A DNA stretch of 64,000 nucleotides, taken from Kiritimatiellia bacterium. Its GTDB lineage: Bacteria; Verrucomicrobiota; Kiritimatiellia; JAQICX01. The stretch covers positions 273-64,272 of the forward strand of contig JAQICX010000182.1 in NCBI GenBank assembly GCA_027858345.1, given 5' to 3'. A program made the position numbers and the translations under genes. Of this stretch, positions 60,751 through 64,000 are shown in pieces. Below the pieces are notes generated by a model. That model was given only the letters and a program-made list of their open reading frames with translations. It was not told the origin of the DNA and ran no database searches. Numbering within the stretch: position 1 is the stretch's first letter; each line of letters begins with the position of its first letter.

Positions 60751-61527
60751 ATGACAAATATTCATCCAACAGCCATAGTAGAAGATACTACAAAAATTGG
60801 AGAAGGTACAACTATCGGACCATATGCAGTTATTGGACCAGAAGTTGAACTTGGGAAAAATTGTAAAATTCATAGCCAATGCAGCATTGTTGGTAAGACA
60901 AAGCTTGGAGACGGTTGCGAAGTTTTTCCATTTGCAAGTGTTGGTGAGAAATCACAAGATTTGAAATATAAAGAAGGCAACAAGACATATGTCGAAATTG
61001 GCAACAACACTGTTATCAGGGAGAGTGCGACAATTCACTCCGGCACAGCTGATGGTGAAGTTACAAAAATTGGTTCCAACTGTCTGTTAATGGCTTACAC
61101 TCATGTTGCACATGGATGTGTTGTGGGTAACCGTGTAATAATGTCTAACAACGCAGCTCTTGCAGGAGAAGCAACGGTTGATGATGGTGCTATTCTTGGT
61201 GGGTTCGCCGCTGTAAAGCAATTTGGTCGCATTGGTAAAATGGCTTTTGTAACAGGTATGTCTGCTATTAATCAGGACATTGCACCTTTTATGATTGGCT
61301 CAGGTAATTTTGCAAGAACTATTGGTGTTAATTCCGTTGGACTTCAAAGAGCTGGATTTGACACAGCCAAAAGATTACTTATCAAAAAGGTGTATAAAAT
61401 CATCTTCAGAGAAGAATTATCAACAAGTCAAGCCTTAGAGAAGATAAAGGCTGAGATTGAGATAACTGATGAGGTTAAAACTATTATTGATTTTATCGAG
61501 GCATCTAAATTTGGAATTGCCAAATAA
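60751..61527 (+). CDS. lpxA: Acyl-ACP--UDP-N-acetylglucosamine O-acyltransferase
   Basis: 258 aa; left-handed beta-helix hexapeptide repeats, MTNIHPTAIVEDTTKIGEGTTIGPYAVIG…. Confidence 0.85.
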   Translation: MTNIHPTAIVEDTTKIGEGTTIGPYAVIGPEVELGKNCKIHSQCSIVGKTKLGDGCEVFPFASVGEKSQDLKYKEGNKTYVEIGNNTVIRESATIHSGTADGEVTKIGSNCLLMAYTHVAHGCVVGNRVIMSNNAALAGEATVDDGAILGGFAAVKQFGRIGKMAFVTGMSAINQDIAPFMIGSGNFARTIGVNSVGLQRAGFDTAKRLLIKKVYKIIFREELSTSQALEKIKAEIEITDEVKTIIDFIEASKFGIAK

Positions 61528-61548
61528 TGAGCTTCTTCAAACAAAAAC

Positions 61549-61575
61549 GCTAAACTCAGGTTTAGCTTTTTTTTT
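61549..61575 (+). terminator. Rho-independent terminator after lpxA
   Basis: GCTAAAC-tcag-GTTTAGC followed by T9. Confidence 0.85.
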
Positions 61576-61620
61576 GAGTTTAACTTTGTTTTTTTTGTTA
61601 AATGACTATATTTTTTTAGC

Positions 61621-61924
61621 CATCCTCCTTCGCAGACTCTGACTCCGGAGGACAGTCCACACGGGTTAACACAGATTTCATTTGTATAACCCCTTTATAA
61701 ACAGCACTTTACGTTTTTTCGGGATTTAACAACGCAATACAACTACATGACATACTTTCTTAGATATCATCTTCTGGGTGATATTGTTATAAAATAATTT
61801 TATGCAGGCTTAAAGTATTAAACAATTTGCTTGTGGATTTAATTATCAACATATTACATGAATATATTTACCCGTGAAAATCTGTCGGGTCTGTCCACCG
61901 GAGTCAGAGTCTGCGAAGAGGATG
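61621..61924. repeat. ~305-bp element bounded by 34-35-bp imperfect inverted repeats (CATCCTCCTTCGCAGACTCTGACTCCGGAGGACAG / CTGTCCACCGGAGTCAGAGTCTGCGAAGAGGATG); candidate invertible switch or MITE
   Basis: IR arms 61621-61655 and 61891-61924 (1 mismatch + 1 indel); 235-bp AT-rich non-coding core; lies between lpxA terminator and the 62094 gene. Confidence 0.6.
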
Positions 61925-62093
61925 ACGAAGAGAAAAAGGAACCTGCAACCGAAAAATTAAGGTAGTTTAGGTTTTGTGCAAGATTTTTCTTTTATTCTCG
62001 TTGATATTATATTACTATCTGCCCTTGTGTTATCATGTTAACAACATATTTAAAAGCTCTGAAACCTATTTGAGGAAAGCATTAACATAACAG

Positions 62094-63151
62094 ATGAAAA
62101 GATGTTTTATAATTTTCGCATTTCTATTTATTTTAGTTCCATATACCTACTGTAGTTTCTTTGAGTCTATAAAAAAGAGTATTGCAGAGAATACAGAAGC
62201 ACAAAAAAGATTGAACTTAAAAACATCAAAGCGGGGAAAAAGGGAAGCAAACCTGTTAATTCTTCCTATGCAACAAATTGGCTTGACAATTTTCATGACA
62301 GTCTATTCCTGACCATTCAGGGACAAATTACCAGAGCAGACACAATGTTTGTGCAGGATAAAGGTTCGGTTACTACACCACATTCTAGATTTGAACTTTC
62401 ACTGTATACCGAACTTGAACAAGGGAAGGGTAGTGCTAGCTTCGCTATTGACCCAAAATTTGACATTGATTTAGCTGTTCCAAATTTAGAAAGAACGCTT
62501 AAAATTTATGTTAATAACACACCTGTGGGTTCTCTGCCAGGTATTGACCCTGTTGATGAAGACAGAACTTTACATCTCGGTGTTAAATCTACTTTGGAAA
62601 AACCAGAGAGTTGGTTGCCAAAGTTTAGTACCAGCATTGGTGTTGATTGGAACTGGCCACCTGATCCATATGTTGAGCTTAATATCAGCAAATATCTGAA
62701 CTTCGGAAACCTTAGGCTTTATCCAAAGCAGTCATTTTGGTTAAACACAACAGATAGACTAAGTGAACAATCAACATTAAGAACGGAATATTGGCTTTCA
62801 AAGAATATGTTGACAACCCTATGGAGTTCCATAAAATACACACAAGACGATGGCTATTTCAATTGGGAACAATCACAATCTGTCATATATCGTTTAAACG
62901 ACTATGGTTTGGATATGGATACACATAAAATGCATTTTTGCAATTTAAAGTTTTCAATATTTGGGGACAATACGGTCGTTAAAACATATCGTTTGACAAT
63001 GCAGTATAAGTTTCCTATTTACAAAGACTGGATATTTCTGGAACTATCTCCTGAACTAAAATTTGAAAAAGAGACAGACTGGGAAACTATCAGAGTCTTT
63101 AGAGTTGGAATAAGTGCCTTGTTTTGGGGTCTTTACAATATGCCAAAGTAA
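62094..63151 (+). pseudogene. Beta-barrel-like outer-membrane protein gene split by a frameshift (signal peptide in frame 0, 62094-62312; mature domain in frame -1 through 63151); pseudogene, sequencing error or slippage-mediated phase variation
   Basis: Frame 0: MKRCFIIFAFLFILVPYTYCSFFESIKK…; frame -1 is open from 62165 and reads …ATNWLDNFHDSLFLTIQGQITRADTMFVQDKGS… to …FWGLYNMPK; overlap zone contains A6 (62171-62176), A6 (62203-62208) and G4A5G3 (62234-62245) tracts. Confidence 0.55.
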
Positions 63152-63173
63152 ATAACAAAAAAGGACAAATAAC

Positions 63174-64000
63174 ATGTCAGATGAACTGCTTCTTATGCAA
63201 ATAGCATATATTGCCGGTTTTCTACTGCTGTCAGCATTAGCATATATATACCTCAAGAAAATTAAGATTCCATACACTATTGGTCTTGTAGTTATAGGCA
63301 TCATTCTTGGATATGTTGCAAAGCATACCAATTATGTGAACGATATAAAAGGTCTACATCTTACACCAGGCATTATTCTTTACCTAATTGTTCCAGCACT
63401 AATTTTTGATGCTGCTCTTGATATGAAAATCAATCGTTTTATGTCGCGAGTTATCCCAATTTTAATTCTTGCCATACCAGGATTGATTATTGGAACTTTA
63501 CTCACAGGTTATATCGTTGGAAGCTTCACCCCTTTAAGTTTGGCAACAGGCATGATTTTTGGTGCACTTATATCGGCAACCGACCCCGTTGCTGTAGTTG
63601 CAATTTTTAAGGAGCAGAATGCCCCCGAAGACTTGGCGATTCTTGTTGATGGTGAAAGTTTGCTGAACGACGGAACATCAATGGTTATGTTCAGTGTTGT
63701 TTTAACCGCTGTTCTTGCTGCAAAAGCCTTCACTGTTGGAACATTATGCAGTGCAACATTGCAATTTGCATACATCTTCTTTGGTGGAATTGCTACAGGT
63801 GTTATAACAACATTTTTACTTTATCTTATAACCTTTCAAGGCAGAAAGAATCCTACAGTTCAAATTGTAACATCCCTATTGATTGCTTATATATCCTTTA
63901 TTGTTGCCGATAAAATTGGGGTCTCTGGAGTTATGTCAACAGTTGCTGCAGCTGTAGCATATAGATACATATACACTGGTAAAAAAGATGAAGACATTCA
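63174..64000 (+). CDS. Na+/H+ antiporter, CPA1 (NhaP-type), N-terminal part; continues beyond window
   Basis: Manual translation MSDELLLMQIAYIAGFLLLSALAYIYL… with …ATDPVAVVAIFKE… and …ESLLNDGTSMVMF… CPA1 motifs; not in ORF track because it runs off the window end. Confidence 0.75.
   Translation, partial: MSDELLLMQIAYIAGFLLLSALAYIYLKKIKIPYTIGLVVIGIILGYVAKHTNYVNDIKGLHLTPGIILYLIVPALIFDAALDMKINRFMSRVIPILILAIPGLIIGTLLTGYIVGSFTPLSLATGMIFGALISATDPVAVVAIFKEQNAPEDLAILVDGESLLNDGTSMVMFSVVLTAVLAAKAFTVGTLCSATLQFAYIFFGGIATGVITTFLLYLITFQGRKNPTVQIVTSLLIAYISFIVADKIGVSGVMSTVAAAVAYRYIYTGKKDEDI

Follow-up and report, generated by a model that had tools for sequence, protein, structure and literature searches.

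A probable young frameshift pseudogene of a conserved porin-like outer-membrane beta-barrel gene in a Kiritimatiellia bacterium

In Neisseria, Haemophilus, Campylobacter and Helicobacter, contingency tracts, which are hypermutable simple sequences made of a homopolymer or of short repeats, are typically located in the 5' coding regions of outer-membrane protein genes or in promoters, and the homopolymers are usually 7-8 nt or longer. In -1 frameshifting of the dnaX and IS3 type, the signal is composed of an A_AAA_AAG heptamer, a Shine-Dalgarno-like element upstream of it and a stem-loop downstream. With regard to slippage by RNA polymerase, selection against slippage-prone runs is evident at about nine A or T in many genomes, and functional cases of transcriptional slippage were sought where runs reach about 9 nt (Baranov et al. 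2005, PMC1088944). Ordinary frameshift pseudogenes, or 'authentic frameshift' genes, are split by an indel of one base in or beside a short homopolymer; the gene is intact in relatives, a conserved recoding signal is lacking, and the sampled population is fixed for the allele.

The locus described here lies in a window of 64,000 nucleotides, which is the whole stretch of DNA that was analysed, from a Kiritimatiellia bacterium (GenBank assembly GCA_027858345.1, contig JAQICX010000182.1). It is probably a young frameshift pseudogene, in other words a null allele; the affected gene is conserved and encodes a porin-like beta-barrel of the outer membrane. The features of ordinary frameshift pseudogenes listed above are shared by this locus, and nothing material distinguishes it from them; the lesion here appears to be very young, with no further decay. 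The feature is of a known, ordinary kind, and nothing points to a new mechanism.

The preliminary description of the locus had placed the signal peptide and the beta-barrel body of one surface-protein gene in different reading frames, and the layout on which it was based is real. The three plus-strand translations and the ORF list confirm the frame-0 ORF, which runs from the ATG at 62094 to the TGA at 62310-62312, encodes 72 aa and starts with MKRCFIIFAFLFILVPYTYCSFF. Translation also confirms that the -1 frame has no stop between 62165 and the TAA at 63149-63151. According to the ORF list, the 268-aa ORF ending in NMPK begins at the first ATG of the -1 frame, at 62345, and no ATG, GTG or TTG start is present in this frame before that position. 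The two A6 runs are found at 62171-62176 and 62203-62208, as had been reported. The G4A5G3 tract exists as well, but it begins one base to the left of the 62234-62245 originally given. The features are collected in Table 1.

Table 1. Positions of the features of the split gene and its upstream region in the window
Feature	Position	Strand	Basis
Insertion (about 385 bp) specific to this lineage, flanked by the lpxA terminator and the gene's conserved 5' region	61577..61960	.	Absent from L013 and L004-L006
5' flank conserved in relatives, with an AT-rich block (GTTGATATTATATTACTAT, 62000-62018)	61966..62093	+	Aligns with L013
Frame-0 stub ORF, 72 codons	62094..62312	+	ORF list, translation
Predicted Sec signal peptide: MKR, hydrophobic core CFIIFAFLFILV, PYTYC	62094..62153	+	Inspection and ortholog pattern
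A_AAA_AAG heptamer in phase with frame 0, 6 nt past the opening of the -1 frame; candidate adventitious slip site	62171..62177	+	
Second A6 run, the frame-break site	62203..62208	+	Single-gap alignment with L013, HMM junction scan
Remaining coding sequence in the -1 frame, Ile40 (ATT 62210-62212) to TAA (63149-63151)	62210..63151	+	
G4A5G3 tract, GCG GGG AAA AAG GGA AGC = AGKKGS	62233..62244	+	Barrel frame; L013 has GAA GGC AAA GCA GGT AGT
G_GGA_AAA heptamer in phase with frame 0, inside G4A5G3	62234-62240	+	
Annotated 268-aa ORF, P0001, 'hypothetical protein PF692_11445', Kiritimatiellae bacterium MAG	62345..63151	+	ORF list, protein search

The two parts of the stub ORF are of different nature. 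Codons 1-38 are authentic: they encode the signal peptide and the first residues of the mature linker (...NTEAQK), and they align with P0157, the protein of the closest relative, and with the other orthologs. Codons 39-72 are an out-of-frame read-through to the TGA and align with none of the orthologs. By inspection, the signal peptide consists of MKR and a 12-residue hydrophobic core, with small residues at -3 and -1, and cleavage is presumed, from the sequence pattern, to take place after residue 20. In the orthologs, the cleavage region reads AYC, AYG or VFG, followed by N/S-F-F. The cysteine of the signal peptide is not part of a lipobox, because it is replaced by glycine in most orthologs. 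The part of the gene that is read in the -1 frame covers the linker and, after it, a conserved helix (YATNWLDNFHDSLF...) and the barrel, which has about 14 strands. The annotated 268-aa protein has no signal peptide, and its start falls inside the conserved N-terminal helix. Upstream of the gene, the AT-rich block recurs in the loci of more distant orthologs (L004 and L007), and the conserved region in which it lies is presumably the promoter and 5' UTR of the porin-like gene, although a sigma-70 scan of 61966..62093 gave zero matches on the plus strand.

A trial protein of 352 aa, made by joining the two frames, was searched against 5.8 billion protein clusters. The search recovered five intact full-length relatives of 344-357 aa, which cover 95-100% of the joined protein, signal peptide included, at 64-71% identity; the annotated 268-aa ORF was also recovered. 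A sixth intact relative, P0157, comes from an ENA metagenome assembly and is encoded in a single frame of 352 aa. The 90%-identity cluster of the annotated protein has only two members, itself and P0157, and the P0157 locus (L013) is syntenic with the window and is the closest relative, at 85% DNA identity. All six full-length orthologs (344-357 aa) are thus intact single ORFs, as would be expected from the proposal of one gene in two frames, and the N-terminal and C-terminal parts do not occur in them as unrelated separate genes. Since the orthologs are intact in one frame and the loci are syntenic wherever the flanks were assembled, the two frames are halves of a single gene.

The gene order of the window recurs in three ortholog loci (L004-L006), which show pyrF-fabZ-lpxA-[gene]-Na+/H+ exchanger, and two of the three continue to an FAD oxidoreductase. 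In the closest relative, lpxA lies upstream and the exchanger directly downstream of the porin-like gene. Four further contigs (L007-L010) are shorter and begin just upstream of the gene, so that the downstream exchanger is their sole context. The PF00999 Na+/H+ exchanger gene starts 14-69 bp past the stop of the porin-like gene in the window (63175-64000), in L004-L010 and in L013, and the exchanger is likely an operon partner of the porin-like gene. One distant family member (L015) is located beside membrane proteins (DUF308 and the AI-2E transporter family), and another (L016) beside unannotated ORFs and a DUF4136 protein. The linkage appears to be limited to the close orthologs, because neither of these two distant members is next to an Na+/H+ exchanger.

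Two irregularities were noticed among the assemblies of the relatives. A truncated ortholog of 234 aa, P0007, was considered as a second, independent inactivation and was rejected, its premature stop being a palindromic artefact of a contig end: at L017 3640-3724, the stop is created by a palindromic fold-back, ttctggctgaatacta ... tagtattcagccagaa. In three near-identical JGI assemblies of one relative, pyrF is called as 85+145 aa, 222 aa or 236 aa (L004 1593-2314 versus L006 1604-2314), which suggests indels at the assembly level.

No curated family accounts for the protein. Pfam scans of the 268-aa ORF and of the joined protein gave zero matches, none of 76 family members has a Pfam match, no relevant NCBIfam model was matched, and a sequence profile search of the PDB gave zero matches. 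An exhaustive profile search yielded 335 cluster representatives at E<=1e-3, mostly of 320-370 aa, with the conserved region beginning near residue 55-60. The fold was modelled with AlphaFold on an ortholog, P0002. A first model, based on a 7-sequence alignment, was unusable (pLDDT 43.5) and was replaced by a version based on a 76-sequence alignment (pLDDT 87.4, pTM 0.78), which shows a helix at the N-terminus followed by a confidently predicted barrel with about 14 beta strands. In this predicted model, the strands of the ortholog form a closed antiparallel beta-barrel, in support of the beta-barrel body of the preliminary description; its label of 'surface antigen', on the other hand, is only a guess. 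The helix before the barrel is highly conserved, as YATNWLDxFHDSLF, in the family of P0002 and P0157. With the structures of the monomeric and trimeric porins OmpG, CymA, OprP and Omp32, the porin-like protein shares only 6-10% sequence identity, and it has no sequence membership in the curated porin families. This uncharacterised porin-like family, with its 335 cluster representatives and neither a Pfam nor an NCBIfam model, could be proposed as a new curated family.

The site of the frame break can be defined by homology. The DNA alignment of the whole gene between the window and its closest relative (1059 columns) contains exactly one gap, at 62207/62208, where the relative has CAAAAAGAGATTG and the window CAAAAA-AGATTG. 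Since the gap falls there, the base missing from the window is the G of the conserved Glu39 codon (CAAAAAGAGATT -> CAAAAAAGATT). This codon is GAA or GAG in all orthologs; at the break site, three of them (L004, L007 and L010) read CAR AAR GAA ATH, and the closest relative reads CAAAAAGAGATT, in frame. An HMM of the orthologs was used to score all possible junctions between frame 0 and the -1 frame; the maximum (647.5-647.9 bits) was obtained at 62204-62210, and the G4A5G3 tract scored 643.4 bits. Past the gap, the -1 frame reads IELKNIKAGKKGSKPVNSSY, to be compared with IELKNIKEGKAGSEPVNSSY in P0157, and frame 0 gives the unrelated RLNLKTSKRGKREANLL. The break at codon 39 is located in the variable linker that joins the signal peptide to the conserved helix.

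Of the three tracts to which the preliminary description had drawn attention, therefore, the second A6 run is the break site, and the first A6 run and the G4A5G3 tract are not. The in-phase G_GGA_AAA had made G4A5G3 a candidate for the junction, which the HMM junction scan and the single-gap alignment overturned. In the barrel frame this tract is normal coding DNA for AGKKGS; the closest relative encodes EGKAGS at these codons and has no homopolymer. The 1-bp deletion that had been among the proposed causes, at or beside a homopolymer, explains the split.

Under the reading as a pseudogene, codon 39 would have lost one base, the G of the conserved Glu, by a change from CAA AAA GAG ATT to CAA AAA AGA TT. 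A two-step route is also conceivable, in which a Glu-to-Lys change would create A7 and replication slippage would then shorten A7 to A6. Judged from the sequence, the second A6 run may accordingly be either a product of the deletion (A5 + G + A -> A6) or a remnant of an A7 intermediate. Ribosomes starting at 62094 would synthesize the signal peptide and the first 18 residues of the mature protein correctly, and would then translate 34 codons in the wrong frame before stopping at 62312. No exportable barrel would be made, because the barrel frame has neither a start codon before 62345 nor a leader.

The reality of the allele and the possibility of its reversal may be judged by comparison at the level of assembly consensus, in four assemblies including the window. 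Across the frameshift, the other three (JGI 3300051640, JGI 3300051639 and the Logan assembly of SRR22875240) are 100% identical to the window. In JGI 3300051639 and the Logan assembly the identity is 100% over 61936-63200, and in JGI 3300051640 there is one mismatch, far upstream at 61481. JGI 3300051639 represents an independent consensus, since it differs from the window elsewhere by four SNPs. A sequencing or assembly error, in which the real gene is intact and a base was dropped at a homopolymer, would be in keeping with the record being a metagenome-assembled genome, with the position of the lesion next to an A run and with the lack of other damage in the gene. Nevertheless, the same sequence is present in the window contig, in two JGI assemblies of different samples and in a Logan assembly produced with a different assembler, and what is missing, by comparison with the closest homologue, is a G and not an A; on both grounds the error that the preliminary description had listed as an option is highly unlikely. 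Short-read consensus errors at 6-nt runs are rare. At least two samples carry the frameshift allele, a finding that fits neutrality as well as it fits selection for loss or a retained function. The preliminary description had leaned toward a phase-variable locus, in which slipped-strand mispairing between A6 and A7 would toggle the porin OFF and ON and the assemblies would have captured the OFF state. As in the contingency genes for outer-membrane proteins of Neisseria, Haemophilus, Campylobacter and Helicobacter, the break is just past the signal peptide, in the 5' coding region of a gene for a surface-exposed outer-membrane protein, and one additional base in the A run restores the frame; translation with A7 in place of A6 gives a 352-aa ORF (...EAQKKIELKN...). 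Unlike in those genes, the tract is derived and only 6 nt long, a length that no homopolymer in the gene exceeds. Such a run is unremarkable in a window of 38% GC that has 204 A/T runs of at least 6 nt. The tract is not conserved either, the closest relative having A5GAG in frame and the others CAR AAR GAA, and the simplest path to it is the loss of a G, not a change of tract length. Its length is identical in the four assemblies, no ON allele is on record, and the upstream inverted repeat, which is part of an insertion 5' of the conserved region, lends no support to a switch. Phase variation at this locus is unlikely in view of this evidence. Repaired proteins with either E39 or K39 had no match in a collection of 15 billion proteins, and a metagenome pattern scan for the A6, A7 and A5GA versions of the site gave zero matches in a collection that evidently does not include these samples. 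A minority subpopulation with the in-frame A7 may exist.

Expression of the broken gene through slippage is the other way in which a full-length porin could still be produced. In one form, which is improbable, a little of the protein would be rescued by an adventitious, 'savior' -1 slip at A_AAA_AAG, at G_GGA_AAA or at the A6 run, or by RNA polymerase adding an A at the A6 run. In another, which is very unlikely, the frameshifted gene would be expressed at a low, possibly tuned, level by way of three successive slip sites, as a just-broken gene kept under selection. Both heptamers have the X_XXY_YYZ form and are in phase with frame 0 where the -1 frame is already open, and any such slip would give a full-length protein that differs in only about 10 linker residues. 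The predicted junction peptides are SIKKEYCR for a slip at 62171, EAQKKIELK for the A6 run and SKRGKKGSKPVN for a slip at 62234, and the linker in which they fall is poorly conserved in the wider family, where profile matches begin near residue 55-60. The lack of relaxed constraint in the window lineage, described below, is equally what would be expected under continued expression by recoding. Against this, the occurrence of two heptamers is not significant, the chance expectation in this lysine-rich stretch being about 0.3-0.44 from the window-wide frequency; the closest relative carries neither of them (it has ATA AAA GAT at the 62171 site), and all orthologs are single-frame. Folding of the region downstream of the three candidate sites (62178-62330) gave no stimulatory RNA structure (z -0.28 to +0.23 versus shuffles), and no Shine-Dalgarno-like (AGGAGG-like) element was found upstream of the slip sites by inspection. 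With dnaX and IS3-type frameshifting, the locus has in common the in-phase A_AAA_AAG (62171) and G_GGA_AAA (62234) in the frame overlap, but it differs in the absence of stimulatory elements and of conservation and in its single-frame orthologs, and neither heptamer coincides with the transition that homology defines (62207/62208). The programmed -1 slippage that had been suggested for the locus therefore finds no support, in view of the lack of any two-frame ortholog, the lack of downstream structure and a number of heptamers near chance. With the rescue by transcriptional slippage described for IS elements and for genes disrupted at 9A or 9T (PMC1088944), the locus has in common an A run in which one extra A in the mRNA restores the frame, but the run here is only 6 nt and falls short of the long runs (~9 nt) in question. 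Neither evolved phase variation nor recoding is supported.

The young frameshift pseudogene is thus the preferred reading, and its age may be gauged from the substitutions in the remainder of the gene. Changes in the lineages of the window and of its closest relative were polarised with three outgroups. At otherwise conserved sites, four private amino-acid changes were found in each of the two lineages, and the private synonymous changes number 14 in each. Taken at the level of the sequence, this lack of decay in the window lineage would mean either that the lesion is recent or that the gene is still under selection. The allele appears to be non-functional and recent. As regards annotation, the public 268-aa 'hypothetical protein' is the leaderless part of a 352-codon gene for an outer-membrane barrel, disrupted at codon 39, and the public record should carry the mark of a frameshifted pseudogene. 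A mixture of A6 and A7 in the reads, or a full-length protein, would make the locus a modest example of accidental phase variation or of savior frameshifting.

The segment upstream of the gene at 61577-61960 has the appearance of an insertion confined to this lineage, and it may be a solitary MITE-like element. It contains an imperfect inverted repeat, with arms of 45-54 nt (~61619-61672 and ~61874-61927), a spacer of 201 nt and a perfect core of about 21 nt, which folds into a long stem (z -8.3), and a 35-codon ORF (61858-61965). The repeat does not bracket the conserved 5' region of the gene, because the 128 bp at 61966-62093 are conserved with relatives that have no repeat. No inverted orientation of the segment was seen among the assemblies: JGI 3300051640 spans it and JGI 3300051639 covers 61619-61850, both in the same orientation as the window. 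In an invertible promoter of the fimS type, inverted repeats flank a short segment with the promoter of the gene; here the repeat lies 5' of the region that is conserved with relatives. The preliminary description had counted the upstream inverted repeats in favour of a phase-variable locus, a reading to which a repeat inside a lineage-specific insertion, and not seen inverted, lends no support. No genuine second copy of the 20-nt repeat core was found in the window or in the genome, metagenome and viral collections, the only matches being single, unpaired chance matches in unrelated DNA. MITE-like elements are non-autonomous transposons with terminal inverted repeats, multiple genomic copies and a target-site duplication; terminal inverted repeats are present here, and no target-site duplication was seen at the insertion. 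A permissive Rfam search of 61400-62400 gave only sub-threshold chance matches. The insertion has no demonstrated link with the frameshift.

Two independent assemblies break at one and the same point within this segment, at 61849-61935 (L002 2438-2591; L003 position 1). In JGI 3300051639 (L002), an N gap replaces 61851-61935, and the Logan contig (L003) starts at 61849. Plain repeat collapse is not an obvious cause of the breaks, because the repeat is perfect over a core of only about 21 nt; the population may be polymorphic near 61850, by an indel, an inversion or a further insertion. In JGI 3300051640, a 10-N gap and about 70 bp of unrelated sequence are present near the 3' end of lpxA (L001 2049-2131, window ~61481), by which the LpxA call is changed from 258 to 268 aa. 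This insert is probably a scaffolding artefact.
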